From: Amphiscolops sp. MND2022 | Lineage: Eukaryota | Direction of reading: 5' to 3' | Length of the DNA: 64,000 nt | Assembly: GCA_964187785.1 (NCBI GenBank) | Contig: OZ076409.1 | Span: 14,944,001-15,008,000 of the forward strand | Notes under the pieces: generated by a model | Databases searched by the model: none | Told to the model about the DNA's origin: nothing | Seen by the model: only the letters and a program-made list of their open reading frames with translations | Part shown: positions 6,455 to 42,540 of the stretch, in pieces | How positions within the stretch are numbered: position 1 is the stretch's first letter | Layout: each line of letters starts with the position of its first letter | Position numbers and translations under genes: made by a program

Positions 6455-7637
6455 CTGAAACCAAACTACTTTTCGATTTAAAAAAAACGCCTTTGAAAAC
6501 CCATTGTAAACTCTTTCTTGCCCGATAATGATTTCTTTTTCAGTTCCAGACAGCCTCAATTTATTACTTCGGGGGAACTTCTGGGAATAGCAAAAAGAAC
6601 TCCTAAACCTCCTGTTTCAAGCCTGAATCGCTAACTACATTCCACAAATTGAGGTACAATGAAACTCAAGAAAACAAAACAATCATTTTGAAGTGTCTTC
6701 ACCTAGCTTGTTTGATTGCGATTAAATTTCGTGACCACATTTGGAGCCAAATTTGAGATATGAAGCTTTAAACAAATTCTTCGACTTTGCATTTTTTTTG
6801 AGATTTGTCGAAGAAATAGCGAAAAATGCCTCGTTTTATTGCAAGATAACGAATTTATTCTTCAGGCTCCCTTCCCAAGGAGCGTGAGAATTGTTCGAAA
6901 GGAATTATTTTGGTAATTTTAAAGAGAGAGTAAAATCTTTGGTAGTAAATTGACACCTTGCGACTTCTTCTTCGAACAAGTTTTTTTTCGAAAAATCTCA
7001 ATTTCGAACTTTTTGTGATAATTTCAGTTAAGAAGAGTTTTTAATTCTTGAATGCCACCTTGGAAATGTTCTGATGCAGTATTATATATAAAAAATCGCA
7101 GTGTCACTGCGTTTCTTGTTTCTTTCTACCTAATTTTTGCTAATAGGTATTAGATAGATGCTGGTGGAAAGCTAAAAAGCACTTCGCACTTTTATAGTTT
7201 ATTGATAATTTCTCGGATATCTCTGTGTGGTGGCGTTGGGGGGCTGTATTTGTAAAGTGGAAACAATTTCCAGACAAACTAGCTTTTTTTCCAAAAAATG
7301 CTTTCCAAAAATTGAGCTTTCTGGGTTTTCCGTTACAAAAATTTGTTCGAGTCTCAGGAGTGATCTCCTAAGATATTTGTTTGTAGGGCGTGATGGAGGA
7401 TGGAGGATTCTGTTGTAATTGAGCTCTAAACGGGGCACTCACCCAAGGCTTTTACGTGGTTTTATCAAGAAATTGCATCTTTGAAACCCAAAATGTTCTC
7501 ATCTTGCATTTTCGGCACTGTGCAACTTACAAAACCAGTCTTCTTTGGTTTTCTTAACGTGTCAAGCTAGAGAAACGTCATTTTTTCTATTAACAAGAAC
7601 TGTAAAATGCCCCCAGGTGCGCGAAAGAACGCATATG

Positions 7638-8764
7638 TGTCGTGATCTTTGTCACTAGATTGGGAAGCTATAGAGTTTCCTCTAAAGTAGTCGTGTTGCC
7701 TACCGTTAGCCAAAGCAGGCTTTGAGTTAGTTTTCCAAGCTTCTCTAGCTCTTTTCTCTTCCGCGGTCCTGCTTAGTCCACTGGACCTGTGGTCCACTTC
7801 TTCCCGAAATACAGGATTTTGGCTTATCACGGTATTTTGACTATTCCAGAGGACTTTCTCACTGAATATCTAATATATAGTGTCCGCTATTTGAGTATTC
7901 TAGTCTCTTTTGAAATCATCTATCTTCTTGGAGACTTCGGAATTCACTAGTCTCATAGTCTTGATGGTAATTTCACTGTTTCTTTTACTATTTGAATTTA
8001 AAAAAGATCGGAAGCAGTTGTTATTTTGTATTATGTCTTGTCTAGTTCTGTCGGAACCAGAGTCCACTTCATCATTCAAGTTTCCTGAATTGCTATCTAA
8101 CTCAATCCTTGAATAAGAAGCCAAGATTACGTCTACATTTTCTATATCAGACATTAGGTCCACTTGTCTAGAGCGTCTTTCCTTTGCTTTTTTTCTAGTT
8201 GAAGGCATTGGGAGAAATGCTTTGCAGGCAACAGTTTACTGCTGTATTTATCAACAAACTGAACAGGATATCAACAAACTGAACAGGATACTACAGTGAA
8301 CAATTAATTCTATTTAAAAATTCTAACAGAAATACGATGGGGACTACGCGTCCAAGTTGACTAAGCGAGACATCACTTCGAACGCGTTGCCTTTCCACTC
8401 TACAGTTGTTTACTATTATATTCACAGCTAATTCAGCTAACTTTTTATCATTCGACATTCTGATTTGCATGATAATAATACATAACAGATATATGAAATA
8501 AATATGAACTGGATGTTACATGTAAAATAATGGGAGATGATTTTTAGGGTTGGTCATACTTAGGCAAACGGACCAGTAGTCCATATGTTAATAAAATGTC
8601 TTTGAAAGCAGTATATAACTACTAGGAACTCGCAAGAAGTGTTTGAATGCTGACCGACTGTCCAAAGGCTTACAGCGGCAAAACTCCTGGGGGCAGTGCG
8701 TAGTTTGATTGTTCGTTAGGGGTTACTTCATGATCATTTCCACCACAGGCGGTCGCCTGTGACA
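7638..8764 (-). repeat. 3' LTR of copy B (internally deleted relative to the 5' LTR); carries a gag N-terminal fragment
   Basis: Begins TGTCACAGG and ends CACGACA; matches 22033-20690; contains the MPSTRKKAKERRSRQ ORF (8208-7900). Confidence 0.85.
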
Positions 8765-9725
8765 CTCCCTGCGGGACGAGAAAAAATGGATCCGCCCGCA
8801 TTCCTGCTTGAAATGCGTCTCTCCTGCGTTGTCTGGTCTCGTATGATTCTCCCACTCGATGAGTTCTTTCCAAGTAGTCAAAAACAACTTCTTCGCGTAT
8901 AATATCTGCTGTTTTCCCGCAGATAATACAGTCGCCCCGTTGGAAAAGATTCTGTTACCCGCAAGTTCTGCCATTTCGTACTGCTACCCCAGTGATTTGC
9001 CTACTCTGGGAACAATATTGTTGCTCACTGTCCCAATTGTTATGTCCTTAGACAGCTTGCTGACCTCGTTCGTGCGGTCGCGGCGATTGAAGTGAATCTA
9101 GCAATAGTTCCATCCTGTTGCAGTGCACAATTGGGTGATCACCTTGGTCATTTAGCCCGGTCGTTTACGGGTGGACCTCTTGTACCAAATTGACAAGTTC
9201 GTTGTTTGGCTCAGAGTCGAAGAAACTTCCTTGGCTGAGCAGTATTTCCGAACACGTCTCATTATCTCTGCATCCAGACAAGTCCACCGTCATTCGCCTA
9301 TTTTCTGTCATCTGCGGAATGGGAACTGAGGTTTCCCTGTAACATGCGATCACTTCTATGTCGCTGTCTGCCTCCTGGTCCTCATTAGTCGTACTCAGAG
9401 GACAATCGACTTCCATTTCCTTATCCGACGAGAGATAAGAAAGACTGACCAAAGGCTGAATGAGTTCATCTACAGAGACATTTCTAGTTTGAATCTGCTT
9501 CAGAAAAATTTTCTTGCAGTTTTGAAGATTTAAAGGAGTCAACTGTTTCGTAGGGTGAAATTCAGAAACAATGGCGGCCTTGGTCCAATCGACCTTAGGT
9601 CGGAATTCACAAAATTCGCAGGAAATCTCATCAGGGAAACTTTTACCCGCTTCTTCCATCGAAAACATTGACTTTTTTATGCGGTTTCCTTTCCTAAACC
9701 TGTTTTGGTAATAAGCTGCTCGCAA
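8670..9725 (-). pseudogene. 3' sense accessory ORF (ORF4) of copy B, broken, ending inside the LTR
   Basis: Fragments 9725-9165, 8974-8723 and 8873-8670. C-terminus GVSQATACGG...LPPGVLPL* is homologous to 35414-35893 and 21939-22196. Confidence 0.7.
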
Positions 9726-10734: not shown

Positions 10735-13700
10735 ATGGATTTTCATAGCGGAAGTGGATTGTATGAATTTATTTCCTTCCGTTTAAGCAAAGAAATGAGT
10801 GACCAGCCGAATCAAGCAACACTGGAGGACGTAGAGAACAGGTCTCAACATAACGAGCAAGCTCCCGGAGCTGAAGTCTCCGGACGCCCAGTGGACACAA
10901 GGTCCGAAACCGAGTTGACCTCAACCAGCGATACAGAAAGCTGCTGGACGTATTTCACCAGGAAGATGGAGTCTTTAGGTGCAGAAGACCCAGTTACCGC
11001 CATAACTGAGGAACAATTCTCAGAACGCGATGAAGCCAGCATCAGCGATTCCGTGCCCGTCACTCGTGGGGTTAATTTCTTTGAACTCGCAGAATCCCCA
11101 AATGAAAATCCACCAGAAGTCACCTTTCTGGAGTCGTCAACAGTAGTTCGCGGGTCCACTGAGTCCGGCCCAGGACAAATGCCAGGCGAAATGACTGGTA
11201 ATCCAGGTTACAACTTGGAAACCAGGTCTGACGATAGAAGAGAAAGAGGAAGCGAACAGAGTACCACGGAAGAGTCAAATATTGGTGCTGAACGAAAAGA
11301 CTATCGGTGCAATACCAGTATTCTCCGAATTGTAGCAGATGAGAGTGCACCATCGTCATTTGGGATGTTCAATAGCAAAGTCCAACGGGCTAGCCAATTG
11401 AGCCTTTACGATCGATCTAGAACTCCACCTAGGGGGCGGGCGCAAAGGAGTCTTGCTGCCGACGCTAACACTGGTGTCGACGTCAATTCCTCCTTGAACT
11501 CCGACGTCCAGGGTGAAAGTACCAGTCAGGGATTCACCAGCGATCCTGATTCCCATCATGATTTCCAATCCTCAGTCAATCTTGCCTCCCCACCAACGGC
11601 TATCGCCATTGGAAGCAGAGACTCTGGGACCACAGCATCGACGTTTGAGTGCTTCAGTCCAGGAGCTCAGACCCTGGCAAACTTCCAACAGGAAGCCCTC
11701 AGACAGAAAAGGAAAGCCTCCAAGAAACCCAGCGGAGCCCACAAGACTTCCAGACACCCCAAGCCCTGCAAGCCAATCGGGAGAGTTATGAGACAAGAAT
11801 ACTTTGAGAGTATGCCGTGGACGCTTACCTTCGTCTCTGGGTCTATGGGTCCCAAATGGAACAAGCACAAGATTTATTGTCAAATATACAAGTGCAATGT
11901 CTCCATTCGTGCTAAGGGACCCAAAGAGATCCTGCGACACTACGCTACCGAGAGCCATCTCCGCAAAGATCAACGGTGGAGATATGAGTACCTAACCACC
12001 GGGGACCCCGTGACCAAGAGAACGCGCTATCATAAGAGGGGAAGGGACGGCAAGGTACTGACCAACTACCAAGTGCAGCTCGAACTGCCCCACTTCATTA
12101 AATCCGAGCTACTGGACATCGGGGAGAATCTCCCCTTCTACGAGGAAGCGATGACAGGAGAGGATCACATGGCGGCATCTCCCCAGAAAATGGCCCGGTT
12201 GCGAAAACATTCATCTTGGGACACTACCTCCCCTTGTCTGGAGACGTTATTGTCCTTCGCACTCTCTGGCAGCATACTGGAACTTTCGTGAACCACCAGG
12301 CGCTGTTTTGTGACATTGACTGGAGTACCACCAGACTCTCAGTAAGTATTCCCATCTACACGCTATCAGGCCAGGTCCATTGCATGGCACATGTAGCTAA
12401 GTGAATCCTATTAAGGGCTTCCTTAGGCAAAAGTACTACTAGTCAACTGGTGAAGCGCGTGCTAATTGAACCACTCTATTGGGGGTTCAACTTGACCACA
12501 GATAATTGCAGAAGTGAATTTCAGGTGTGGCTTCATCAGTTGTTCCATCAAATGATTCCAAGTTTGGAAAACGACATCCTTTATGAAGGACAACTTTCCA
12601 CCGAGTTCGAACCCCAAGGCGTGTTCCACCATCTGCACGTTCGCTCTGAGAAGGAAAACAAGCTGTGCAGGGTCTACTTGCTCCGGACGGGCCGTACCGG
12701 TGGACAGACGCCGGCTGAACTGCGGCTGCTGTCGACTCTCCTCGCGGCTATTTCAACTGAAGTTGATCTGGTGTATTGCTGTGGGGGTTCCTTCAACATC
12801 GTTCAATTGTTAGACATTTCTCCGCTGTCCGGACATGGGGTCTAGCGCCCTGCTACCTTTGATGAGATTTCCACCAAGAAGTTGATGCATAAGGACAGAC
12901 ACAGCGTGTTCGGTCGTATAGACTTCTTTTCCGTCCTCCATCCTCCATAATCTTGTTATCTCTTTGGGAGGCAGTGTTCAAAAGGAGTGGACTTTGTTTA
13001 CCCCCGAACTAGTCAAAATTAGTACCTTTTACTTTTCAGTCTGGCTATTTTCCAACTCCAGAGATTGTAACTGTGTACGGTTTTGTGGATATAATTTCGC
13101 CATTCCTCAAAAGTGCATTTTTACTGAATTCATCACTAAAATTAGTCCTGGTAAACAACTCCATTCTCCATGTTTAGGCCAAGAAGTCGAGCAAACTAGA
13201 CGTTTTCTCTGTGCCAGCCCTCTGCCAAGAGTTGATCACTCACTGGAAGTCAGTCACATCTTTTCTGTCTGCCCGTGCCGTCCCAGAGCAAAAGCAAGGA
13301 GTGAAAAATCAGGTAGGGCATTCTTCATCCGGTGTACTCACGGTCCCTTTCTTAATTTGCGCAACGAGTTCTTTCATTTTAGCCACAAAGTCTAGAGTGG
13401 TCAATCATCCACGATGATTTCTTCACCTGTCATTGGGAACTCTTCCACAAGCTAGTCCGCGATTGTTAGTAATTGACATGTTCCAAGCTAGCATATATAT
13501 TTTGTTTCTATAGGCTCAATTAATGTTGTCCTTAATAGCGTTATCACGATCTTTCAACGCATTATTCCCTTTGTGACTCCTGGTATTGGCATCCTTAGTT
13601 GTACTAGAATCTGCTGGGTAATTCCCCGTAATCAAAGGTTCGTACAGCGTTTGTTCTTTCGCTTAGATATAACCAACTTCTCTCTCAGCATCAGCGGACG

Positions 13701-14809
13701 TCGAGACCGAGGCTTCCATACATATAGACAATTATGTCTGTACCTCCGCAAGGTTGCAAAGAGAGTGGTGCTGCCGAAATCTCTGCCTTCCGAAGACGAC
13801 TTCGACGGGATCTTTGACCTGGACATCTTCGTTGCCCCTTCTCTAAGTGTCACCGTCTTCCTCAATCGGTTGAAAATCGGACCCAAGTTGGACCACGCGT
13901 GTAAACTGAAGGCAGAGGTTGAACAACACGAGAAGAAAGGGGAGAAGTCAACTCTTGAAGAACTGACGAGCAAGGCCAAAGAATATTCTGGCAGACTGGC
14001 GAGAAGCTACGTCACCCACCTCTTCAAGGAGACCAGAAGTCATTTAGACTTCGCAACTTTAATAGCTCAAGGCTTGGGAAGTTTTGATTTAGAGATTCTC
14101 CTAAAATTGCCTCTTACTCTTGCCATCAGGTGTTACAGTAAGCTGTTCACATCTTTTAGACTGCGAGGCTATTTCTCAATGGACCAGGAATTTCAAGCGC
14201 AGGAAGAATACTTGTCTTTCCTCGACGAACTTCGGGTCAAGTACTCTGAATTTGATCAGCCAATCTTCTAATTCCTGACGCTATTGACTTTATCATTGGG
14301 GAGGCGGCGTTACATGCTCGTTCATTGTTTCAGCATGCTTTGAGCTTGCTTGTCTTTGCCTGGACGAACCATTCCACCCCTTACTTGATGTCAAGTTCGG
14401 TCGTGTCAACACCGAGGACCTTACTATCAAGCTGGTCGATGTCGTCCTGCCGGTCCAGTCTTTCTTTAGTAACGTGGTAAGCTGTTTTGATACTGCCACA
14501 AGCGATACCTCCATTGCAGATATCCTTGAGCTCGAATCTACATTCGAACGGAGTGCCCTAAGTGACACATATGACCCTTGGTTGGGTTTGGATTGCTTCG
14601 GGCGAACGGAGATTCTGTCCAAACTCGATAGAGAAAGCAAGTTCCAGAGCAAGCCCAAGAAGGGAAAATCTGGCAGATAGTCGAAAATTCAGCAATGCCT
14701 CAGTACTCTCCTTTTTTCCAAGAAGCACGCACGGCCCACGCAACTTTTGTCGGAGGATGAGATTAGCCAGAGTGCTAAGAGTCTTCGTCCATGCAGTAGT
14801 AAAGACTAA
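10735..14809 (+). pseudogene. Antisense, intron-containing accessory gene of copy B (low-complexity N-terminus, zinc finger, possibly hAT-transposase-derived body)
   Basis: 518-aa ORF with IYCQIYKC...RHYATESH plus downstream fragments. GT-AG introns at 12342-12524 and 13313-13513, acceptor at 13177. Ends PCSSKD* (14807-14809). Colinear homologue in E. Confidence 0.8.
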
Positions 14810-15059
14810 TTGTACATAGTGTACATGTGGGCGTATAGTTGTATCTTTTTTATTTTGTAGATTCGATTCATCTATTTGTTGAACACCTTTCGTCCTGTTT
14901 GCAAATTTATTTAGCAGTTGTTATTTGTGGGTTTTGTATAGTACGCCACTAGGTCACTAAGACAAGTATTCGTTCCGAAAAAGAAGTCAGAATAGTCCCA
15001 ATTAAATTACATGTCCTTGAGGACAGATAACAAGAAAGGTACTTTGGAATTTAATATTC

Positions 15060-18000
15060 TGACTAGTATCTGTATTTTTTAGTGTAGTTGGGGGTGGGGT
15101 TAAGCGAAGATTGTCTTTTAAGCTCCTATGACTTTCATTGTTTATAATCGTTTCATCATTTTCACTTCCCAATACTTCGGGCACGATAGTATCGCTCCCC
15201 CCTGAGGATGTTTTATCAACAGAATTTTTTTCGTCGTCACTTTCGTGCGTCAGTTGATCAGGACGAATTCCTGCGGTCGTATCTCGTTTGGTGGACCGAA
15301 GGTCCACAACGGTCAGAATTTGATCTGGTTGTTCTGTACTGTCAGCAGCGTCGTTGGTAATTTCTGCTTGTTCGCTCGGTTACTCGTAGGTCTCGTTACG
15401 TCGGCCAGACTCAAAGTCGCCAAAGATCGTTTCCTACGTGATGACGTATAAGTCGTCTTGTGAAATAATATATTCATCGTCGGGCTGCAATTTTTTTTCC
15501 GGGTGGACCTCCTGCAAATCAGTATTTGGTTCATGTTTTCGAAGACAACTTCTACGTAAGATTTGCGTCTTGTTTGAACTGAGTTTTCAGACTATATAAT
15601 TGTTATTCGGTAAAACTATTTTTAATGATGTAAAGACCTATCCAACTAGATTTTCTGAACGGGATGATTTTTAATCCCTGATGATCTGCTATGGGTTGCA
15701 AAATAAAGCAATAGTCATTTTATTTCAAGGGCGCCTGAAACCGGTTGTTGGTATTATAGTACAGTTGGGGTTGAGTCCCAACTTGTGGTCCAGATTTTTA
15801 TATGGTATTCGGTCATGAAATATCCTTGAAGGCTCACAGCCCAGAGTCGAATAATAGGACGTGTTGTAATTGAGTACTGCCAAAGGTAGGTATTTGTGCC
15901 ACTGACGTCTGTACTCCCCTGAGGCTATCTTGAGGTTCGTTTTGAGACTGGCATGAGTCCGCTCGAGCTTCCTTATGGTCTGCGGGTGTTTTGTCGTCGC
16001 ATATTTTATCTGAATTTCCAATATTTGTGCAATTTCAGGAACTAACTTTGGAGTAAAGGCTGTTCCTTTATCGGTTATCAAAGTCGTTTGCAAAAAAGTA
16101 TGTTTGGTCAATATGTCAATAATAAACTTAGCTTTATTTGCTGCTGATGCATCAGTAACTGGGTAAGCAAAACGATAACGCGAAAAAACGTCCATGGCTG
16201 TAACAATATTTTCGTATCCTCAGCTCGGCGGGAGGTTTGGTAAAAGGTCTATTTGTTTTGCGTCTTCGGGACTTAAGGCCCACTCTGAAAAATTGAGTAA
16301 ATCGGGAGTGATTAACTCATTGCTGATTCTCCTATCTTTGTTGCATGTTTCGCATCCGTTCACCCATTTTCAAACAAGTTTGCTATCCCCGGGTAATAAT
16401 GTTTGGATCGGATTTCCTGTAGCATCTTAGCGATGCCTGGGTGTCAATTAGCCTTCCCATGGAGTGATTTAAGTAATTCGGTCACCAGATGCTTAGGTAA
16501 AAGCACTTGGTTGTACTTGACGTTTCATGTTTCATCATAGTACTGCCTGGTGATAATTTCATCGTGAATGGACATCCGGTCCAATTGACGTAGCTAATGT
16601 TGGTATCTGGTATCTTGTATCAAGATCGTTTCTTTCTGTATTTTGGGCTTAAGTTGTTGTAAAATTAACGTCGTTAATTTGTTCTATCGCCACGGTGTTG
16701 ATGTTGACTACTTTTTGAGAAGTTGAAAGTTTATGATAATGGCTGTTGTGGGAACTGAATTTTTCAAACGAGATATCCGGCAATTAGTGGATTGGGTTGT
16801 CACGTGCCTGTTCCTTTCGTTGCCAGATTTGCTTTTCCGTTTCGTCTTCGTCTTCAGTGTAGAAGATTGTTCCTCTTCGGTGACTCCTGCTGATTGGACG
16901 TGAAGTTCAATTGTCGTTGTGGGAATATCTTCTCTAATGCGAAGGATCAATGATGCTTTCGGTGAAACGTCTAAGCGTGATAAATGTTTCACGCGTTCCA
17001 AAATGTATGTGGATTGATCTTTGTTTGAAAAAAACGCGTGACCGATTTGTTGTCGGTCAGTATTATTACCGCTTAAGGCGTCCCCCAGAATATATGTCCA
17101 GATTTCTTCACGGCAAAGAATATTGCTAAGGATTCTTTTGCATGAATGGTTATTTTCAACAGTGTGGGACAGAAGGTCTTTGAGTCGTAAGCCACCGGAG
17201 CAAAAGCTTTCCTCGTTGAAGAGTATTTCTCTTGTGGATCATCCTTAATCAGGACTGTAAATCCAGCTGCCATGAAGCTGGCTTTAGTCATGAGGGCTAT
17301 TTGCTTGTTCGGTAGCGGTTGTTTGAACGCTAGTTCGCAACAACGGTCAAGAGCTTTATTTATCTCGGTATAGATTTCCAACTTACCAGGACTTTTTCAT
17401 CATTCTTTAGTAATTTAAAGAAGGGAGTCAATTTTTCTGAAAGCCTGGGGATGTAATGGCAATAGTAGTGGAGAAATCCCAGGTGTCGTTGTAATGCTTT
17501 CTTGTATTTTGGGAATTTTGTGTTTTCGAAAAAATTTTGGAATCGTGGTTGCTGCGGAAGTACTCCGACCGGAATAATTGTCCGACCTAGGAAGTGAATT
17601 TCCGTTGCACCAAAAGGGCTTTTGTGCCTTGTAAGTTTCAAGCCTGCATCTCGGATGCATTGGAAAGTAGCCCGCAAGTTTTTGATGAGTTGTTCGACTT
17701 CGCTTGCGGCAATAATAACATCGTCGACATATTGTGCACATTGATCAGCTTTGATAACCTTATCAAGGTATTTGCGCTTAAAGCTTGAAAACGCTGATAA
17801 AGCGCGACTGAAGCCTTGTGCCAATCTGCGATTTGCAAAGGTTCTGCTGGCAAAATTGAACGCCAACATATCGATCGACGTTTGGTGTGCCATCTGCCAA
17901 CAATGGTGTGCTTTCGAGCAATCCAATTTGCAAAATCGCTTTTTGCCTGCCATATGTTGAGCTGCATCTGTCAGTGTACTGACGGGATGATTGTTGTTGA

Positions 18001-19757
18001 TATAGTTGTTTGGTATAATATTGTTGATCTTCCTAAGGTCGAATAGTAGTAGTAATTTGCCACTAGGTTTCTTTTTTGCAAAAATTGGACTAGCGTATTG
18101 GTAAAATGGGAGAGTAGTTTTTGTCCGATAACGTTGTAGAAATGCCAATTTCACAAGCATGTCTTCCTTGAGGTTAATAGGCGTTGGTAGATCAATGCTT
18201 GCAATTTCATCTGGTTGTAGCATAGAATCCGTCGAATCAAAATTGGTCAGGAATTGTCGTCTGGACTCAGGGTCATCCTAGCTCTTGGAGATTCAACAGC
18301 TCTTTTAGAATGCGAACTTGGATAGGCGTATGTTGCTGCGTGCCCCCGGGGTCCTCCGGAGTGGGAAACCAAAAATTCTCATTTAAGTTGTCTGGTTTGG
18401 AAGATTTGACTAAGCTGATAACTTACAAGGCAGGGTTCTGAGGATTGGCTTGCAAGACGTGCCAGGTGGTCACCGGATCTATGTCAAATTCCATCTGCCC
18501 TGGTGTCATGACAGAGAAATTAGCAACGTGCGAACCTCTCTTGAGAGTATAAGGATGGTCAGTGAAGTTATTCAAATCAATCTCAACCTGACCCGAGGTC
18601 CAATGTGACCAATGCCGCACAAAAATCAATGTCCCTATCTTCAGTGAGTGCATTGCTCGGTTGGAGATGCCAGTAGCAGTGGTGGTGTCATCGTACATTT
18701 GTGAGGTCAACATGACTAGTTGTCTATCATTAGGGGGACTTGTAATATCCTCCTGAGTACAAATAGGCTCCACGTCGTTGGTGTACTTGTGATCCGCTGT
18801 CTTCAATTGCTTGGAGAAGAACGGGAAATTCAAAATTCCCTGTCGCATTTCCAATATGATATTGTATCGTTGTAGGAACGAAAAGCCGAATAACGGACTC
18901 GTTAGTTTCTCCAATACTACAGATTTTTAGTAAAACTCTATGTCGCCAACCTCAAATTTCAGTTCAACATTGCTATTCGGTGTTTCCAACTGCCCATTTG
19001 CTACCATTATTTGGAAATTTGGTGCTGGGTCCTCTTTGACAATTGACTGTGGGGCTAATATTCGGATTTTACGTAGAGCAGCTTCCGGGATTGCGCTAGT
19101 TAGAGCTCCCGTGTCTACAAGGCCATCTAATGTAAGATAAAATAGAGCATTCGTCGCTTGTATTCGAGTCCAAGATTGGTTGTTAGCGGTACATAATCTG
19201 GCTCTCCATTTGTGGTGACCAGGGTGTTCACAAATCGTGCTTCGACTGTGTAGTCAAAGAGACCTGTGGTCTAAAATTGTATAATTCATCCTTGCGTTCA
19301 TCTTGTGCTGGTGAAGCACAAGGATCAAGTTTTGTTTGCCAAGGGTCAAGTAGTGCTCTGCGCAAGACGTCGTTTAGAGCCCCATCGGTCACAGGATAAT
19401 CGGGTTCGATTTCTGCGTCTTGCTTGTTGAAATTTCCATAAAAGTGTAATTCATGTTGATTGTAGATTTGAATGTGCCAGTAGGGGTCAGCACGGTATTC
19501 AGGGTCTATATAACTTGGGTCGTAATCGGGTATGAATGAGAGGGGACGAATAGAGTTTGTGGTCGCGTCAAGTCCGTCGGACCTGTGGTCCGAAGTGCAA
19601 AATTGTGTAGAGGTGATTCTCATTTGCTGCTGCCAGTCAGCCGATGAGGTTTCCTGAGGTGAAGAGTAATTTTCAGTATAAAATACATTAGAGGGTCAGA
19701 AATAATTTACTGTCTGACACGTAGTTTGTCAATAAATTAGAGATGTGGCGAATCTAG
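15060..19757 (-). pseudogene. pol: pol of copy B, frameshifted (PR, dUTPase-like, RT, RNase H, integrase)
   Basis: LVDTGALTS (~19115), NNFTDHPYTLKRG, KLDCSKAHH, QYVDD, HAKESLAIFF, DVFSRY...TDKGTAFT...LERTHASLK (integrase core). Confidence 0.92.
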
Positions 19758-21052
19758 TTTTTTGTGTTTTTTAAGATAGAAGTTTAGTGTTTAATATTGT
19801 TATCGTTTTGGCCTGGGGACGTATCTTGCTATTTTGCGTCCTCCAATTTGAGGTTTTCTGCTTGAGGTGGGCTCCGGCGCCTTTCCAACACCGTTCCATC
19901 GAGTGGTTCGTTCTGCCGCATGTCGGACGATTTGGATATTCTTTCTTGGTATCCTGCCCTTCGTTGCGTTTTTGTTCCTCCTTTCTTTTGAGTTTTCGGC
20001 AATCATCTTTGACGTGTCCGGGTTTTTGCAGGAATTGCAGGTAATATTCGGGTCAATGCCGGAGATAGGAGGCCTGTTCCCGGTCGTGTTGCTGTCGGGG
20101 CAGTGAACATTGTGGGGACTGGAATGTCGTCACCTTCCTCAAGTCCATTAAGCTCCAGTTCTCGTTCCAGACGGGTACCGATTTCTTCGTATGAGGCGTT
20201 CTCCAGTCTTGCCATGTTCATTGACCTTTTGAGTTTTGGGGCAATTTGGCGTATAATAGGCCGTCTATCATCGCCTGGGCGTTTTCACCGAACGCCTTTT
20301 CTGCACCCTGATTTAAGTCTTCAAGAAAATCCGGGCAGCTTCATAGTGTTTGGATCAAATACCAGTATATGCCGTTTGTGCTTGGCAGTTGCCTGGGATT
20401 CTGGTTTGACGTACTTTCGCCGGAAGACCGCTAGAACATCTTCCAGAGTTTGCCTATTAACAGTGCTAATGTTGCGGAAAGTTTTTAGAGCTTTTTTCCG
20501 TAATGGAGAATGAAAATGACTTATTTTCATCATTTCCGTCGTTTCTGGCTGCAATTTTATCATGGTATGAAAAAGGTTTTCAAAGAGTTCAAATTTGTCC
20601 GACTTGCCATGAAACATCAGTGTAGTGGTGCTGAACGGACGTACTATCAGTGTTTGTGCTGATGATTTGCTGTTCATTAGCTAAAGTAGGAGGACTTTCT
20701 CGCTGATTATCGATTTTATAGTGTCCGCTATTTGAGTATTCAAGTCACTTTTCTTTTCATCTAATTTCTTGGAGACTTCGGAATTCACTAGTCACATGGT
20801 ATCGATGGTAGTTTCACTATTTTCTCTACTATTTGAATTTAAAAAAGATCGGTAGCAGTCGTTATTTTGTTTTATGTCTTGTCTAGGTCTGTCGGAATCA
20901 GAGTCCACTTCATCATTCATGTTTCCTGAATTGCCCTCTAACTCATTTCTTGAGTGAGAACCCAACATTACTTCTACATTTTTTATATCAAACATTAGGT
21001 CCATTTGTCGAGAGCGTCTTTCCTTTGCTTTTTGTTTTCTAGTTGAAAGCAT
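19754..21052 (-). pseudogene. gag: gag of copy B, frameshifted, with an internal deletion near 20690 that removes the LTR end and PBS
   Basis: MLSTRKQKAKERRSRQ start; fragments RRKYVKPESQATAKHK and LERELELN; ends AAAAAAC TAG. Confidence 0.88.
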
Positions 21053-22033
21053 TGGGAGAAATTCTTTTCGGGCAACAGTATATTGCTGTTTTTATTTATC
21101 AACAAACTGAACAGGTTACTATACAGTGGTCAGGTAGTTCTATTTCAACAATAGGTTCAACAGCTGGATTGCGACCGTAGGTCAATTGCAGTTTGTAGCA
21201 CGTGAATATCAGAGATGAGTATTGTCAGGTGTATAATCAATAATGGTCCTGTGATCTACGTGACCCCCGTATAAATACTTGGAAAAGCTTGACAAGAAAG
21301 CACGTTTCCTGGTGTCGCGCATCTAAAAATAGCATCGAACTAGAAAAATGTCTTTGCGGACCTTACGTCGTAATTACATCATTTGGCTATAAACAGAAAT
21401 AGTCTGGGTCGCGAACGGGTCAAACTAGTGAAGGGGGGCGTAAAGGCGGCACGGTTTTCAAGTCTCATATTTGGAATTTATATTTATTTACCAAAGTATT
21501 GGCTAGTGTAAATATTACATATACTTCCAGCTAAGGACCAGCGGTCTAAATAGCTAATGATGGAGAAGAAAATTAGCACTCTAGAACTACGCGAGAATGA
21601 ATGCTAAGCGCTGATTGGATAATACAATGGCTGAGCGAGACATCACTTCGAACGCGTTGCCTTTCAACTCTACAATTGTTTACTACTATATTCACAGCTA
21701 TTCAGCTAATTTTTGATCATTCGACATTCTGGTTTGCATGAAAGTAATACATAACAGGTGTAAGAAATAAAGATGAACTGGATTTTACATGTAAAATAAT
21801 GGGAGTTGATTTATAGGGTTGGTCATACTTAGGCAATCGGACCAGTAGTCCTTACGTTTATAAAATGTATATGAAATCAGTATATAACTACTAGGAACTC
21901 GCAAGAAGTGTATGAATGTGGACCGACTGTCCAAAGGCTTACAGCGGCAAAACTCCTGGGGGCAGTACGTAGTTTGATTGTTCGTTAGAGGTTACTTCAT
22001 AATCATTTCCATCACAGGCGGTCGTCTGTGACA
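20690..22033 (-). repeat. 5' (shared) LTR of copy B, 3' end deleted
   Basis: Begins TGTCACAGACG at 22033; aligns with 8764-7850. Confidence 0.82.
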
Positions 22034-22230
22034 CTCCCCGCGGGACGAGAACAAATGAAGCCGCCCGCATTCCTGCTTGAAATGCGTCTCTCCTGTGTTG
22101 TCTGGTCTCGTATGATTCTCCCGCTTGGTGAGTTCTTTCCAAGTAGTCAAAGACAACTTCTTCGCCTATAATATCTGCTGTTTTCCCACAGACCATACAG
22201 TCGCCCCGTTGGAAAAGATTCTGTTCCCTG
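21939..22230 (-). pseudogene. Second copy of the ORF4 C-terminus, upstream of and overlapping the 5' LTR of B
   Basis: GDCMVCGKTADIIGEEVVFDYLERTH...PPGVLPL*; closely matches 8960-8670. Confidence 0.8.
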
Positions 22231-23656: not shown

Positions 23657-25386
23657 TGTCGCAGGCTTCCACCTGCAATGGAACAATCATCACGACATCG
23701 GCAAACGGACAAGACGTCGCACCAGGAACAATTCCTACATTCTAGTGTTGAAAATGTAACATTTCCATGAAAAAAATCCTTAGTCAATTAAAGATTTTGA
23801 TATGGTACTTTGTATTAGTCTCTTAACTGTTGCTTAAAAATGCTGATTTAGTTTTTGTAGGTGATGTAAATTAGAATGAATTAGAATGCAAGCAATCCAA
23901 TTACTGTACGCTGTAAAGGAAACGAGTTCAAATGTTAAAACGTCTCGTTTCGGCGACGTAGTTCGTTCCCTGTTATTAACCAATCACAGTGCAGTATAGC
24001 TAGTATTATCTTTCAGCAATACATTATTCGGCTGGTTATGGCGGCTTGCCTTGATCGAAATACTACGCTTACGGACGCTGGTTCACTGGCCAATTCCGGC
24101 CTACTTGGTTTTTATCAAACAATCTGTGTTGTTTAACTTTTAGTGCAGTGCATTTCTTGGGAAGTGCTTGTAATTGTCTTAATACGCCATATGTAGTGAT
24201 TAAAGATGTTAAAGAAGCGGTGTTAATTGTTTTATTTAAACGATTAAACCCAAAGTCCAATTTGATTGGAGCATGACTTTATTATCCGTTTCTTGTATAT
24301 TGGCCAATTTGTGACAAGATTGCGAATGAAACCCATGATAGTAGAAATATTTGACCGGACATATATTTGTTTACAGGATTGAATGTAAAATGGAATGTTG
24401 ATGCGTATTTCTAGTACAGTTGAAGCTTTATTGCCATAAACAGTTGTTGCTATCTGTGAACTAGGAATGATTTTCCTCTTGACCATACACTAACAGGACA
24501 AATTCCTGAATTGCTTTGATGAAATTGTTGCCGCTAACAAATATTGATTTGGTAGTGTTCCGCACTGGTCAAGTGCTTTTTAAAGAATTTGTAAATAGTT
24601 AGGTTGATATGTAAAGAATGTGAGTGTCACCCTCTCTCTCAGAAGTATATTTTCTGGAGTATTCTTCTGGAGAGGGACACAATTTTTGCACGTCTTCTTT
24701 AGTTCAGCTTGGTAATATAGTCATTTAACTATACAACTTTCCAAACTTTGTTTTCCGAACAAAATAATTTAGTATTTTTACTCGGATTCTCCTCAATGCC
24801 TACTACCAGAAAGCAAGAGAAAGCTAGGAAGTCTGGGGGACTAGAGATGCTCTCTGATATTGAGAATATGGATATAATGATCCATGAAAATCATTTTGAC
24901 ACGGTAGAAAGAGAGGAAATTTTAAATAACACTTTTGCTAGAAGGCCTGAAATTGCTAATAGTAACAACCTTAACCATGATGATGAAAACATGTATTTGA
25001 ACCCAGGAGTTTTCAACTAAGGTGCTGACGCCGATCACGGCCGACACTCAGCAAGTGCCAACTCTAGTGCTGAGAATAATACATTGTCGAGTGAGTTAAA
25101 CTCGAGGCTTTCTAGACGTTTGTATGAAATGATAAGCAGTGTTATTAGCCAGATCCAGAAGGCGATTAGTGACGCAATTAGCTGCCAAATAGTGCCTCAG
25201 TTTCAAAATGCCCTAAATTCCGGATCGGGCCGTTTGACACAGAACGACAGAATGGATGGAACGTTCCGGCTGAGAGACCGGAAATTAACCCCGAAGTATA
25301 CCGCAGTGACAAAACTGAAAAAAACTCAAAAAGTGAGCCAATTGGTGATCGTCTTAACGACGATATCACACATCAAGCTTACAACA
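23657..25386 (+). repeat. 5' LTR of copy E (1730 bp)
   Basis: TGTCGCAGG...TTACAACA, followed by the PBS-like TGGTGATCGGAG; direct repeat of 35805-37023. Confidence 0.9.
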
Positions 25387-26507
25387 TGGTGATCGGAGAT
25401 AACGAATCTCCAATCCAAGTTCCTGAGTTTCTCACGAGACGAAGGCCATCACAAAGTCATCTCAACGATTCCCATGATGACCTCAATCCCCTTCTTGACG
25501 CGACGATCCCAGGACAAGAGAAAACTGCACCGGATATCGAATTAGATCTAATCAACAGGCTAACTGATGTCTTGACTAGTATGCAGAATCAACCAACGGC
25601 CCAACAACTCACTACTCGTCCGATCAACTCTAATACAATTACCTTTGACGGCAAAAGCGAAAAGTTCGAGCTTTTCGAGGATCTTCTCCACACCATGATC
25701 AAGATACAGCCCGAGATGTCTGAGCAAATGAAAATCAATCACTCTCACTCACTTTTGAGGAAAAATGCGTTGCAGACATTCAGAAACATTAGTACCGCTA
25801 ACAGGCAAACCCTCGAAGACGAATTAGTTATCTTCAGACGCAAATACGTCAAGCCTGAGTCACAAGCGACTGCCAAACACAATTGGCACCGCTTGGTCTT
25901 TGACCCTAACACAATGAAGTTACCAGACTTCCTTGAAGAGTTGAATCAAGGCGCAGGAAAAGCGTTCGAAGACAACGCCCGAAAATTATTTACAGTTTCT
26001 TATACGCAAAACTGCCGCCAAAGCTCAAAACATCAGTCAACATGGCCAGACTGGAAAGTGGCTCTTATGATGAATAAGTCGCTCATTTTGAGAGAGAATT
26101 AGAGCGTAACGCTCTTGAGGAATCTGACGACTTTCCAATGGCAACAATGACCTCCTCAACCCCCAAATCTCAAACCCCTCTCTCAACTGGACAAATGACT
26201 GACACGGACAAATTACTGCAAGGAAAAGGGCCATATGATCAAGGACTGCGAGAAACTGAAAAAGAAAAAGAAAAAGATGCCCAACAAGGCAAACCGACTC
26301 AGAAGAAAACTTATCCTGAGTGTGGAAATTGCGGCAAGAAAAACCATCCCGAGGAAAGATGTCGGCAAGGCGCAGGTGCGCACCAAGCGCAACAGACCTG
26401 AGGACTCAAATGACAGCAAAACAGATTCAAAAGTTCAAAAGCCTCATTCAAAACCGACATCGTCTAATTCCCAATCTTCATCCAAGAATGATGATTCCAA
26501 AAACTAG
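24796..26507 (+). pseudogene. gag: gag of copy E, frameshifted
   Basis: MPTTRKQEKARKS start; fragments closely similar to gag A, including CGNCGKKNHPEERC and the SKN* end. Confidence 0.92.
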
Positions 26508-29500
26508 CTTCGCCACGACCACAATATATCCAACTAGTATCAGTCCGACAAACATCAGGTCGGATCCTCCAGCAAAAACTTTTCATGACTATAAACAACA
26601 ATTGATGGGCTACCCCTCTGGTGTCTGGCAGCAGCGGATGGAAAAAGCTATCATTATTACTTTCAATAATGCTCATTTGTATCAAAACCCATTTCCTGTT
26701 TGTGTGATTGACGATTACAATCCAACGTACATCAATTCAGACTACGGTAGAGATACATATTGAGACACTGAGATCTATAATCAAGATCTATTACAATTCC
26801 AATACGTCCTAGATGACATCGAGCACTACAAAACAACAGTCCACGAGAACCCTCCAATAACGCGCAACAAGAAAACAAGAGCGTTGATTGAAACTTGGTA
26901 AATGAACAATGGCACCAACCATCCAGTGTCCCCAAACCCCTTGGGAACCAAGAACTCTGAACCCAAATTTGGGGAACTGACCATAGACGGCCTGATTGAC
27001 ACTGGAGCATTATCCAGTGCGGTTCTTTGAATGGACTTCCAGAAAATTTGACTCCTTTCTCCACAACCTGTTATCCGGGAAGGTCCGCCTCCGAATTCTA
27101 CAATCTTAAAACTACAATCGAGCTTATACTTGAGGTTGGTGATATCGAGTTCCACGAAATATTCATAGTAACGGAGCATTTGACGGGACCAATCATCGGA
27201 CTAATGGTCCCTCAGCGAAATCATACAGTTCTGGACATGAGACAGGGAATTCTGAACTTCCCGTTCTTTTCAATGCAGTTAAAAACAGCGGATCATCGAT
27301 ATTGGAACGTTTTGGAACTGAACCTCAATCCGACAGATGTTACCATTCCTCCGAATGATAGAGTCCTAATCAGGACAAATTCCCCACTTTACCCTGAGAA
27401 TGCTGTCACCTGGTTACTGCAACCGAGCGACCTTCTACATAAAGAGGGCGACATTACTTTTTCCCCATCTTTGGTCAGTTTGAATAATTGCAATATACAG
27501 ATACCGGTGAAAAGCTTCGCGGATCATCCCTACAAACTTTAAAAGAGACTCCATATTGCTAGCTTCTTTGTTATGACGCCAAAACAAATGAAACATGTCA
27601 AACCAATTGATCTGGCATCAACCTGGCACCTTCTGCAAAATAACTAAGAGCAGGCAGCCCATTATGTCAGCAGTCTCATCAAGACCAATTAAAAACCCTC
27701 AGATTTCCGAAAATTATTGGTTTCCAACTCCGGAAATCCCTGGAAACCTAGATGAGCACACTTCGATCCAGAAAAGGATACAACGGGAACTACAGGCCTT
27801 ACAGGACCTAGAAATCATTGACCCTACTAAAGATGAGAAATCTAGAGCAAAGTTTCAAGAAAATTTTGATTGGAAAGATTCCATTTTAGAGATTATTTGG
27901 GGCATTCGAAGAATTTGGGCATATTTTTTGGGGTGCGCCGAAACCGGTCATCACCCCAACTGACAACAAAGCTGTCACTCAATTTTTCCAAACGAAAATT
28001 GTACCCCCGTCCTGTGGATTGCTTGGGACTATGTAATACAATTCAATTTTGTCATAGCGCATATTCCAGGAGCACAGAATACGACAGCAGATTATTTGTC
28101 GCGCCTGGAAGCTGACCAAAAGGACAAACTAGTCATGAAAATCAGGGAGGACGTACAAACGGTCCCCATCGAGATAAATGTCCGTCAGCAGGCGTCGCCC
28201 AAGAAGAACAAATCTTCTATACAAATGATGACGATGAGACGGAAGGCCATAATTGGGCGAGGAAAGAAGCAATTCGACGAAATCCCGCCACATCAGAAAC
28301 AACAATTACAATCCAATCCGTCTCTGCAAACCTGAATAAACAACAACCTGAAATACAAGTCCGTTTAAGGAAGACGAACCAGATAATAATTGAGCATTCC
28401 AAAGATGCGGTAATACAGCAATTGAAGACAAAACTCCATCATGAGGACTATTCAGAGAAAGTACTGCAACAGGATGCCAGATACAGACATTATACAAACA
28501 ACTCAGAACGAATTATAGTCAAGGAAGACATCCTAACAATGCAAACAGGGAAATTAAAATACCATCAAATTCTCCTCCAACAGCTTTTGCTTCAAGAATT
28601 GTTTCAGTCCCTTCACGGAACGGCTCATAAGCACCCTGGCATCTCGAAATTGTTGCAGTAGATAATACAAAAGTATTACCATCCTAGCATGGCAACTCTT
28701 ATTAAAAAGTGGGTAGAAGGGTGCGAACAGTTCGAAAAAGGACAAACGTGGCCCCAATGCAACGATCAGGCTTGAACTACTTAACTTGTCCGAATGGGAC
28801 CTTGATTCCGAGGACGCTATGCATATCGACTTATTGTCAAATCTTCCTTCAAGAGGAGGTTTTGAAATTGTTCTAACTGCAATTGATGTCTTCTTTCGAT
28901 ATCTGTTCACATAAACTCTGACGAACGCCTCAGCGGTCAATGTAGCAAAAGTGCTCATTGACATAATGACTAAACATTTATAATTCAAAGGGTACTGCCT
29001 AATGAGAAATATATTGTACCTCATCTCAATACAAAAAAAACTCAAACTTTGCATCGCATTCGCCCTAAAAAGTTTGTTCCCAATCAACCGCTTGAGGACA
29101 ATTTCCGGGAAGAGCGACTACAGCAGGACGAAGACATTGTCATTCCGCAAGACAATTTGTACACAATAACGTGGGAAACAAACTCCGTTGAACAACTAGC
29201 TACACGAGGCAATGAGCAACTTCCGACTAGCATGCCGAACGGCGAAAGACAGATTACGTCAGATACGATTTGACCTGACGCACGCGAGAATGAAGCTGAT
29301 TACATATGCACGACGGATAGTCCGAATGACGTCAAGGATGTGGCGCAAAGTCAGAATGAAAGAATGAAAAATGACGTCAGCAACAGAAATGAAGCTAATA
29401 AATCTGAAAAGAATGAAAACTCTGATTGTCCGGATTCGACAGTTTACCACAAAAATCAAGAAAAAAGTTGTCCAAACTTGTCCAAAGGACAAGAAAATGA

Positions 29501-29688
29501 TGCCAATTTTTAGGAAGATAATTCTTCTAATGACAACGATGCACGAGACTCTTCAAAAAAGGGGGATGATATTGTCGTGCCCTAAATGTCTCAAAGCGAT
29601 GATAGAATTGAACGTCTGAGCCCTAGAGGAGGAAAACAAACGTCAAGCCTGACCCTAACCCAAACTACTCAGAAGATTTCAGATACTG
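26504..29688 (+). pseudogene. pol: pol of copy E with large internal deletions (RT lost near 27890; part of integrase lost near 28980)
   Basis: LIDTGALSS; DWKDSILE is joined directly to AFEEFGHIFWGAPKP; SLHGTAHKHPG; IDVFFRYLF; ends YSEDFRY*. Confidence 0.88.
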
Positions 29689-29904
29689 AAAAGGAGTGAA
29701 CTACGTCCAGAAACGAGCGGTATTTTTTCTTATTTCTTTTCTTTCATTTTTTCTGGTCCCATGAAAGTTTTTGGGACAATTGGAAAATCCCTTTGGAACC
29801 AAATAAGTACAGGGGTGCAGAAACAAAACGGAAAAACAACATCAGGGAGAAATCAATCAACAAAGATTACAGTTTTAACACGTACATAGATACATATGTA
29901 CATA

Positions 29905-32900: not shown

Positions 32901-34241
32901 CAACGAGCTCTTTGAAAGCCTAGGAAACCAGAGCTGTCACTTTCATTGAAGGAATCAGAAACTGCTTTTCCTGCTTCCGTATTGAATTCCCCGGTCGTGT
33001 CAGTCCCGGCTCCGGAATCGTCTTCTTCATGTGTCCCATCACCAGAGTCTTTGAAATGTCTCGTTCGTGGTGTTTGGGCCCCAGTCTGAGACCTAAAATG
33101 GTCAGTCCTAGACCTAGATGTAACGGGTGCTCCCTTGACGGCTCCTATCACCATCTGTTCCATAGCAGTGTAGGACATCTTCAAAGTCTCATCTGTCAAG
33201 ACTAGTAGAAGGAGATACACCTGGGACTCTGTCAAAGCTACAGTTCTATGCCCTAACGGGAGGGTCATTATCGCGGCATCCTCGTCGGAACATTGTTTCA
33301 AAGTCGCGCTGCTACGCACAGATAGCTCTCATGTCCCAGCATCTTGTGGCTTGGAGGTTGACGGTCCAATTGGGTAGGTAAGTACCCGGAAGTACTTACT
33401 AAACTGTCATCTTCCCCAGGTGAAGGATCATTCGTAACTGGAATAAAGCCATGTAGCTCCGGAGAACTGAGTTGGCTTGATCCGTCCCCGGTCTCTTCTG
33501 CCTCTGTCCCATCATCAAGGAGCCACACTTTAGTTTCTCCTTGGGGAAGATTGGGCGAATCACAAAAAGACCTGTCTCAGGCTGCAGAAAAGGAACAGCA
33601 GATGCCTCATTGGTAGAATCTGCGGCAGGCAATATTTCCGGAAGAGCTGTCCTCGAAGAGGCGGCAATCCTGAGCCCACTTTCCAATTGCGTCAAAGTCA
33701 TCTCCGGAGCAGTCTCTGTTGTTCCAGGTATTGGAGTACTGGTTCACACAAGTAGATGAACGGATTCTGTCTAAGCCTGGGTAACAGACAGATCATCCGG
33801 CTTACACCCTTAACTTTCCACCATTTCTTCTTCTTCCACACTTCCCATTGCTTCTTCTATTTCTCCGAAATTCTCAGCAACTTGTTCGATATCTGACTGA
33901 TTCGCTAGTATCTGTGCTTCTTCAAGAGCACGAACCCTCTCCTCGGCGTATGCAGTGACGTCTACATTACTGTCAGTACTGTTGGGTGATCTAGGACGTC
34001 TAATAGGAGGAAATTGAGGCGGCGATGGTACCATGTTTGAAGCAGGATTAGTGTTCAAATCAGAGGCTGGTGTCTGATCTCTCTCGGTATTCTGGTTATC
34101 TAAAGGGTAGGAAATGAAGTTGGCGGCGTGCTTTCTTGAAAGAAATCCATTTTGTTGCATTAGAAAACTTCTAGAAGCATCTTCCGACCTCACTAGTCTT
34201 AGCACATGAATTAGACGGAAACAAGAAGCGTTCGTGAACAA
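29905..34241 (-). pseudogene. Antisense, intron-containing accessory gene of copy E
   Basis: Homologous to 10735-14809: EILRHHRTEKRLRKDQRWRY, CDFDW...RIS|gtaagt (32155), 135-nt exon 31525-31391, KGLAAFDPFIL, ends QCSSKD* at 29905. Confidence 0.8.
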
Positions 34242-34806
34242 GCTTTAGCCCTGATCAATTTAAACTAGTTCAAATTACTAAAAATCCAGACCAACCTGAA
34301 TTTGAACACATGGAGTTGCTCGTTTGCAAATGTGGAGACAGTGCTGCTGGGGATTTGAAAGTACTGGAAACTGGCCGAATCTGGCTGCGAAGGGAGTGTT
34401 GGAAGGTCCAATCCGAAAGGGAAGAAAGAAGATAATAACGGAAATTGTAGTTAATGAAAATAGATAAATCCAATAGGAGATGTGAATTGTAAAAAAAAAT
34501 GGAATCAAGAATGGACAATGCAATAGAGAATTAAAAGTTGGAGATCGTGGTTGAAGAAAATTACCAGACTAATACCTTGTGGATATCTAATTGTTTAAAA
34601 TTGTACATGGAGTCTGCCAGCGAAGTGTACAGAAAATCCTTCATTACTTAAAGCTTGATTAGTTAGAAGCCGATTCTGGCCATTTACCCTGTTTCGTTTT
34701 GCCGTTTTGCTACGTTATTCTTATTATTTTTAATTAGAATTTCCGCCACTTTGGGTTAGTTTAGTTCTCATTTTCGCCATTTCATTTATTCATTTTTATT
34801 TTTATC

Positions 34807-42450: not shown

Positions 42451-42540
42451 AAAACTTAACCATATGGGCATCTCCAAAGCTCGTGCCCCAAAAAAAACGT
42501 CACCATATGGGCATCTCGCAAATCTCGAGCCCCAAAAACA
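42451..42540. repeat. ~40-bp minisatellite (2 copies) inserted in one satellite unit
   Basis: ccatatgggcatctc...cgtgcccc repeated; same motif as 56363-56487. Confidence 0.85.

Follow-up and report, generated by a model that had tools for sequence, protein, structure and literature searches.

Evidence for a multi-intron gene carried antisense to gag-pol by a Ty3/Gypsy retrotransposon family of an animal genome

A 64,000-nucleotide stretch of DNA from Amphiscolops sp. MND2022 (contig OZ076409.1, forward-strand positions 14,944,001 to 15,008,000), here termed the window, was analyzed within the 1.07-Gb genome to which it belongs. The window contains two old, related copies of a long terminal repeat (LTR) retrotransposon, B and E, each carrying a region, antisense to gag-pol and located between pol and the 3′ LTR, that a first-pass annotation had read as a selected, spliced accessory gene. 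Comparison with further copies from the same genome supported this reading, its splicing and transcription being predictions from the sequence, and we are highly confident that the gene is real, under selection, dependent on its introns and part of the element. Wnt genes are present in the genome (score of 163 bits; cut-off, 20.3), and Wnt proteins are specific to animals; the host is thus not a flowering plant.

Eleven copies of the gene, representing at least seven diverged lineages, were read, namely those of B and E, those of seven whole elements and those of two further gene regions. The fetched copies were chosen for long open first exons, giving a sample tilted towards intact copies. 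When the splice sites of one intact copy were projected by nucleotide alignment onto the other copies, which are 45 to 70% identical overall, the donor and acceptor dinucleotides fell in the same alignment columns in all of the copies. Alignment of the same eight putative splice junctions in 11 copies with this level of identity is far beyond chance. The predicted gene consists of five coding exons of ~1.9 to 2.2 kb, 486 nt, 135 nt, 82 nt and ~1.14 kb and of four introns. Exon 2 is 486 nt long in 9 of the 11 copies, exon 3 is 135 nt in all 11 and exon 4 is 82 nt in 10, while intron lengths extend from 63 to 994 nt. Of 44 introns, 39 are GT-AG, 3 are GC-AG (intron 2 of copies d2, d8 and E) and 2 are noncanonical, the latter affecting the intron-2 donors of the broken copies B and c3b. 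The GC donors were located at L045:3427 in d2, in L046 for d8 and at window position 31602 in E; as the spliced frame of d2 is intact, GC-AG seems to be the working form of intron 2 in this lineage. Intron 3 of copy c2 is 994 nt long, as opposed to 65 to 109 nt in the other ten copies, probably due to an insertion.

A tblastn comparison of the reading-frame pieces of B with E detected seven collinear protein matches of 26 to 56% identity and one short off-diagonal row. The first-pass annotation had proposed that the B and E genes share splice sites at matching protein positions; these were found where described, and the same junctions recurred in the 11 copies. Exon 1 terminates with ...DIDWSTTRLS at position 12341 in B and with ...DFDWREERIS at 32156 on the minus strand in E, followed by gtaagt from 12342 and 32155, respectively, and intron 1 is 183 nt long in B and 76 nt in E. 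The 135-nt exon (13178-13312 in B and 31525-31391 in E) has edges of tttag/g and Q/gt, and both genes end with CSSKD and a stop specified by differing codons. The exon count, however, required correction. Exon 3 ends in phase 0 but the last exon starts in phase 1, which led to detection of an overlooked, conserved exon of 82 nt ending in phase 1 (13383-13464 in B and 31281-31201 in E), whose end reads ...KLVRD plus T before gttagt. Furthermore, a frame change after VDIG, which had seemed to be common to B and E, turned out to be two separate frameshifts, one in each copy.

Intact copies with an open spliced frame were sought, and 5 of the 11 copies have one (1280, 1280, 1248, 1322 and 1289 amino acids), the other six being broken by stops or frameshifts. 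Keeping any single intron resulted in a premature stop in 20 of 20 cases across the five intact copies, showing that the long frame would exist only after removal of all four introns. Splicing is, therefore, predicted from the conserved junctions and exon lengths, from the five intact spliced frames and from truncation by every one of the 20 retained introns; antisense transcription separate from that of gag-pol would follow by necessity and is likewise predicted. The start context AAGATGG or TAGATGG is kept in all nine copies aligned, and AATAAA or ATTAAA was found 111 to 211 nt past the stop in four of the five intact copies. Among open reading frames (ORFs) from a public protein collection with homology to exon 2, a Val codon (GTN) directly follows the last exon codon in 13 of 15. 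No longer gene models joining the exons were present among 8,000 candidates. Intron-less processed retrocopies were absent from the best 150 of ~6,500 exon-2 candidates, in which all open frames were ≤252 amino acids, a small sample that was not counted as evidence against splicing.

Selection on the exons, another proposal of the first-pass annotation, was assessed by pairwise comparison of copies. For c3a versus d2, the ratio of nonsynonymous to synonymous divergence (dN/dS) was 0.09, 0.04, 0.04 and 0.05 for exons 1, 2, 3 and 4 plus 5, respectively, with dS values of 1.1 to 1.7; these ratios are not near 1 and the proposal stands. Identities between the same copies were 0.90 to 0.96 at codon position 1, 0.94 to 0.96 at position 2 and 0.53 to 0.65 at position 3, with values of 0.63 to 0.74 for the introns. 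In more-distant pairs, silent sites were saturated (proportion of synonymous differences, >0.75) and the proportion of nonsynonymous differences was 0.11 to 0.42. These comparisons show strong purifying selection on the gene across lineages. Conservation might instead have come from an antisense regulatory RNA or from cis signals of the sense genomic RNA, with no protein being produced, and noncoding antisense transcripts are known for micropia, TART and IAP (PMC7264820). This explanation is extremely improbable, as conservation with a three-base periodicity is what characterizes a coding frame, exons are of constant length whereas introns vary, and frames of 1,248 to 1,322 codons are open only once the introns have been removed.

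The same data bear on whether the gene is a passenger, i.e., a cellular gene transduced in reverse orientation that rides along or serves the host with no help to the element. The introns and the good start context fit a captured cellular gene, and gene transduction by retroelements is documented (PMC7264820). A passenger should decay, however, and yet dN/dS is 0.04 to 0.09 across lineages saturated at silent sites and the gene is present in 11 of 11 copies from at least seven lineages. Moreover, the 305 database relatives of exon 1 are all ORFs from large contigs, none of which has a Pfam domain or lies in a longer gene model, and no single-copy cellular homologue turned up, although no search was aimed at one. 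We consider a passenger origin very improbable.

The element family is a Ty3/Gypsy (Metaviridae) LTR retrotransposon, as indicated by its LTR ends, target duplications and the protease-reverse transcriptase-RNase H-integrase order. The seven whole elements are 15.8 to 16.7 kb long and have LTRs of 1.48 to 1.75 kb with TGTC...GACA ends, the LTR pairs being 98.7 to 99.9% identical. Target duplications of 5 bp are perfect in five of the seven and have one mismatch in two, and a primer-binding site starting with TGG adjoins the 5′ LTR. In an intact copy, the pol domains are located at residues 220-314 (protease), 625-790 (RVT_1), 882-986 (RT_RNaseH), 1179-1235 (Integrase_H2C2) and 1255-1350 (rve). 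Pfam searches of B and its intact relatives detected a DUF1759-type gag, an aspartic protease, reverse transcriptase, RNase H and integrase. Searches of the genome with the conserved part of exon 1 gave at least 6,400 first-look candidates, as did those with exon 2 (~6,500), and all of the best 150 scored matched in each case; many of the 150 scored exon-1 candidates had an open first exon of 630 to 765 codons. With LTR identities of up to 99.9%, the family is young, and it comprises thousands of copies in many lineages.

The antisense gene was found between pol and the 3′ LTR, opposite to gag-pol, in the same place and orientation in 11 of 11 copies; its stop is ~200 nt from that of pol, the two genes being convergent. 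As nested insertions are common in repeat-rich DNA, and as the block recombines as a unit, the 4-kb block could in principle be a mobile element in its own right that had entered both B and E. This was rejected, with next to negligible probability remaining, for several reasons. Position and orientation are fixed in every copy. No terminal inverted or direct repeats are present at the block edges, the sole flanking inverted pair being of 15 nt (87%) and situated within pol, and the block has no transposase or reverse transcriptase domain (Pfam). The target duplications lie outside the LTRs, at the ends of the complete 16-kb unit.

Identity of the antisense protein between pairs of copies is far below that of pol, and not proportionally so. 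For c2 versus c7a, amino acid identities were 0.94 for pol, 0.89 for gag and 0.64 for the antisense protein, and for c7b versus c1 they were 0.93, 0.92 and 0.63, respectively. DNA identity between c7b and c1 was 0.90 to 0.99 over the LTR and gag-pol and 0.50 to 0.74 over the antisense gene, introns included, with a step from 0.68 to 0.93 within ~150 nt directly past the antisense stop. A similar step-like pattern was observed for c2 versus c7a (0.89 to 0.98 over gag-pol and 0.55 to 0.70 over the antisense gene). The pol tree groups c2 and c7a with a support of 100, whereas the antisense data reject that clade (approximately unbiased test, P = 0.0135, a post hoc result as the group was named after the identity matrices had been seen). 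The step-like identity and the conflict between trees indicate that either the gene was exchanged between lineages as a block or gag-pol was homogenized around it. The antisense gene thus appears to behave as an exchangeable cassette between lineages.

One explanation for this mosaicism is that the protein confers specificity or “immunity” as a lineage-specific repressor or self-regulator acting on its own upstream region or LTR. This would serve to control copy number or to exclude competitors, and the various versions would be retained and recombined with the best gag-pol backbones. In favor of this are the identity steps in c2/c7a and c7b/c1, the discordance between pol and antisense identities and rejection of the pol-tree clade, which show the elements to be mosaic. 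Mosaicism is, however, a product of recombination and says nothing of the role of the protein, homogenization of gag-pol by frequent template switching gives the same picture with no specificity, and repression and site binding are conjectural. A specificity role is distinctly unlikely.

The spliced product would be a protein of 1,248 to 1,322 residues with three parts. The first 420 to 500 residues are variable and acidic (16 to 17% Asp plus Glu) and contain 19 to 23% Ser/Thr. A basic stretch (17 to 18 Lys plus Arg per 75 residues) then precedes a C-x2-C-x(n)-H-x5-H motif, which is kept in four of four intact lineages. The C-terminal ~750 residues are conserved and lack a recognizable family: Pfam gave no family even at an E value of 0.01 for any exon of B, of c3a or of 52 aligned homologues. 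An AlphaFold model of the exon-1 C terminus (predicted local distance difference test [pLDDT] score, 76.7) has a beta-beta-alpha core and no significant structural neighbor (Foldseek, best E value of 0.33; VIA, best Z of 5.0). The exon-5 model (pLDDT of 57) is helical over residues 14 to 232, and neither Foldseek (best E value of 0.12) nor VIA (best Z of 5.2) found a structural neighbor for it. A PDB sequence profile search with exon 2 returned nothing, and intron 1 interrupts the region in which an RNase-H-like core might lie.

These searches are relevant to a possible descent of the protein from a DNA transposase of the BED/hAT type (Buster-like) that was taken up in reverse orientation and now tethers or targets the element, having lost its catalytic residues. 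Weak hints in this direction came from language-model searches, which linked exon 1 to GTF2IRD2-like clusters (zf-C2H2_12 and FAM200-ZBED5_RNase-like; scores of 0.76 to 0.78) and exon 5 to Dimer_Tnp_hAT (score of 0.80), and from Foldseek, which placed the BED fingers of ZBED1 (rank 2, E value of 1.1) and ZBED3 (ranks 6 and 12) among the neighbors of the exon-1 C terminus. The D-x-D-W-S at which exon 1 ends and the C-S-G-A of exon 2, as compared with D-G-A in Buster-type proteins, may also be of hAT type. However, the language-model scores are within the range of shuffled proteins, all Foldseek E values are ≥0.33 (≥1.1 for the BED-finger rows), no Pfam zf-BED, Dimer_Tnp_hAT or hAT model matched in 8, 5, 20 and 32 sequences scanned, and the exon-2 profile search was empty. 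In particular, PF05699 had no match in 32 exon-5 sequences although this model does detect true hAT copies, at least 150 of them, at other places in the genome, and an hhalign comparison of the exon-5 alignment with the C-terminal ORF of a hAT from the same genome gave a probability of 0.4%. We regard a transposase origin as quite improbable.

An element-borne accessory gene of an animal Ty3/Gypsy family is the explanation that we favor, and this scheme, taken as a whole with its proposed anatomy, expression and function, is somewhat probable. The gene would have its own promoter, located either within the LTR or in the ~2 kb that separates the 3′ LTR from the ATG, with transcription directed towards pol, and the host would splice the antisense transcript. 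The introns would outlast retrotransposition because in the sense genomic RNA they are reverse complemented and, hence, unrecognized, and their presence may date back to the capture, in reverse orientation, of a gene that contained introns. As for function, a nuclear nucleic-acid-binding regulator of the element's own expression or replication is the likeliest candidate and is put forward tentatively, a guess suggested by the finger-like motif, the basic stretch and analogy to the role that has been proposed for Grande gene23 and Retand TRP28 and that is known for the antisense proteins of human T-lymphotropic virus (HTLV). A more speculative extension is that the gene and its upstream control region form an exchangeable regulatory cassette, once captured in reverse from an intron-bearing cellular or transposase gene, whose anciently diverged versions have been kept apart by selection and moved between near-identical gag-pol backbones by recombination, like the immunity regions of temperate phages. 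This extension is rather unlikely as a whole; if true, the protein would allow each lineage to regulate itself, or to counter host silencing, in a way of its own.

Several observations weigh against this favored explanation. Both antisense gene copies in the window are dead, and the intact share of 5 of 11 is biased upward by the choice of copies with long open first exons. Synonymous sites are near or beyond saturation (dS of 1.1 to 1.7 in the best pair), so the dN/dS values are rough, and the close pair d2 and d8 has values of 0.35, 0.04, 0.78 and 0.44, which do not reflect purifying selection and which we ascribe to neutral decay of d8 once it had inserted. In c1, one of the intact copies, neither AATAAA nor ATTAAA is present within 450 nt of the stop. 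Searches of Pfam and of solved folds matched no exon, leaving the finger-like motif, the basic stretch and analogy as the basis for the proposed function. Finally, the transcript, its junctions, the promoter and the poly(A) site are all predicted by comparison of sequences.

Coordinates of elements B and E are given in Table 1. The antisense gene is a pseudogene in both elements. When the projected splice sites are applied, its reading frame is first interrupted by a stop at codon 518 in B and codon 16 in E. Exon 1 of B has one frameshift, between 12123 and 12177, and the pol of E is partly deleted.

Table 1. Features of elements B and E in the window
Feature	Position	Strand	Remarks
B antisense exon 1	10735..12341	+	ATG at 10735; donor gtaagt at 12342; CCHH finger-like motif inside
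B antisense exon 2	12525..13017	+	493 nt, not 486; frameshift near 12845-12858; next donor decayed to AT
B antisense exon 3	13178..13312	+	135 nt
B antisense exon 4	13383..13464	+	82 nt; ends in phase 1; donor gttagt
B antisense exon 5	13667..14809	+	Stop at 14807-14809; frame changes near 14270-14290 and near 14680
E antisense gene	29905..34150	-	Heavily decayed; intron-2 donor is GC
E antisense exons	34150-32156, 32079-31603, 31525-31391, 31281-31201, 31050-29905	-	
Element B, whole	~7,610-22,228	gag-pol on -	LTRs 87-92% identical
Element B 3′ LTR	7610..8960	-	Start approximate; LTR-LTR match is 7849-8960, 87-92% identity
Element B 5′ LTR	20451..22228	-	Inner boundary approximate
Element B gag-pol remnants	15089..20677	-	Protease, dUTPase-like, reverse transcriptase, RNase H, integrase; in pieces
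Element B ORF3 remnant (third sense-strand ORF)	8673..9599	-	Extends into 3′ LTR
Element E, whole	23657..37023	gag-pol on +	LTRs ~23657-25389 and 35806-37023, 85-86% identical
Element E gag-pol pieces	25302-29207	+	Without equivalents of intact reference pol residues 538-938 and 1311-1502

A third related element, A, occupies positions 3-4699 of the window (minus strand) with open frames for gag (578 codons) and for pol (991 codons as far as the window edge). Identity to the intact reference copy is 71% for pol and 53% for gag. The 3′ region of A, the expected site of an antisense gene, falls outside the window. The pol domains of B and A also match the Ty3/Gypsy set (Pfam). A dUTPase-like stretch is present between protease and reverse transcriptase in an intact copy (pol residues 349-432 in L034) and in B (18423-18926, minus strand), with scores of 18.7 to 20.2 bits that are under the Pfam cut-off of 22. 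Window positions 38,200-56,500 consist of a satellite with a period of ~1,064 nt (~17 copies, 60 to 100% identical; uniform G+C content of 0.35 to 0.37), which was overlooked by Tandem Repeats Finder because the longest period there was 500.

The elements have other features of their own. The gag frame is open for ~600 nt within the 5′ LTR and across the primer-binding site (L034:4437-6167, minus strand), such that the first ~195 residues of gag are LTR encoded; they match both LTRs of B (20690-21052 and 7639-8208). A third sense-strand ORF of 288 to 337 codons, ORF3, is conserved in six of six lineages aligned (L033:2539-3471, minus strand; B, 8673-9599, minus strand; E, 35438-35878, plus strand) and shares the motifs MSLQF, DIEVIAC, SPPPHE, C-x-VCG and SQAA-CDG. 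It is located upstream of the antisense gene start, crosses the polypurine tract and ends 89 to 104 nt within the 3′ LTR. No Pfam match was detected for ORF3, which may be expressed from a spliced subgenomic sense RNA. Immediately after the antisense stop (e.g., window 14810-14825), TTGTAC.....TGT is kept in lineages that are otherwise ~50% identical and may be a 3′-end signal of one of the two converging genes. Three gene copies on C7, at 62,497,437, 62,512,110 and 62,526,783, are spaced by exactly 14,673 nt, which corresponds to the element length minus one LTR and, hence, looks like a tandem array with shared LTRs. Copy c2 (L035/L036, C2:70,611,001-70,631,000) lies inside a ~99-nt satellite array seen on both flanks. 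Transposons of the hAT type are abundant in the genome: the hAT dimerization domain gave 2,215 first-look candidates, with open frames as long as 697 codons.

The closest known counterparts of this gene are found in plants, where Retand/Tat elements characteristically carry antisense ORFs between pol and the 3′ LTR (PMC11963269, PMC7264820 and PMC4408406). TRP28 is present in 97% of clusters, and these genes are conserved within lineages (PMC11963269 and PMC7264820); Grande gene23 has its own promoter, and a nuclear or DNA-binding regulatory role has been proposed for the plant genes (PMC11963269, PMC7264820 and PMC4408406). As in Retand (TRP28), maize Grande (gene23), rice RIRE2 and PvRetro13, the extra gene described here is antisense, is located between pol and the 3′ LTR and is present in most copies. 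It differs in having an animal host and four introns and in being three to four times longer. Descriptions of the plant genes present each as one uninterrupted open frame, and “intron” is a word that PMC11963269 and PMC7264820 do not use. The plant genes carry TRP28, PMD or SMC-like domains, whereas no match to TRP28 (Transposase_28, PF04195) or PMD was detected here (Pfam).

Among non-plant Ty3/Gypsy elements, the fungal Boty elements also have an antisense gene, brtn, in this position, with pol on one side and the 3′ LTR on the other; its description is attributed to Zhao et al. (2011, Virology 417:248). This additional gene occurs in Boty-like elements of Botrytis cinerea and Sclerotinia, and papers citing it are silent on introns (PMC7264820 and PMC8365987). 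Boty elements are fungal chromoviruses; here, no Chromo match was found in pol, whose C-terminal 200 residues match only Integrase_p58_C. The deltaretrovirus HTLV-1 likewise has a minus-strand coding gene near the 3′ end, HBZ, which is regulatory. The main HBZ mRNA is spliced and encodes a small bZIP protein, with one intron and a first exon in the 3′ LTR. An antisense promoter in the HTLV 3′ LTR is also mentioned (PMC7264820). Unlike HBZ, the gene described here gave no match to bZIP or any other domain (Pfam), and its four introns are within the coding region.

The predicted arrangement of introns has a parallel in biotechnology. In engineered retroviral and lentiviral vectors, a cassette retains its introns on passing through the genomic RNA only when it is in antisense orientation. 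The same intron logic would apply here, although vectors are man-made while this is a natural family of thousands of copies; it would thus be a natural example of the vector-engineering rule that a retroelement can carry an intron-bearing gene only backwards. The plant Ty3/Gypsy element Ogre has a spliced intron in its sense strand (title cited in PMC4408406). Ogre likewise keeps a spliceosomal intron, but in the sense transcript between pol domains, whereas the introns described here are antisense and in a separate gene.

These findings would extend the range of LTR retrotransposons with antisense accessory genes, so far described from plants and fungi, to an animal genome. A large, strongly constrained protein without a known fold might be a regulator of a new type encoded by the element, and the cassette-like exchange means that a hard question, namely, what favors the retention of accessory genes by retrotransposons, can be addressed from sequence data alone. 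For annotation, failure to recognize the layout would lead to such genes being masked as repeats or mistaken for host genes. The first-pass annotation knew of no described lineage with this layout; this view was too broad, as antisense genes between pol and the 3′ LTR are known from plant and fungal elements, but it held for animals, in that full-text literature searches (with subscription journals and Repbase outside their scope) found no antisense gene of an animal element. While antisense genes as such were already known, what is new here is the animal host, the large multi-intron gene, the lack of a recognized fold and the cassette-like exchange.

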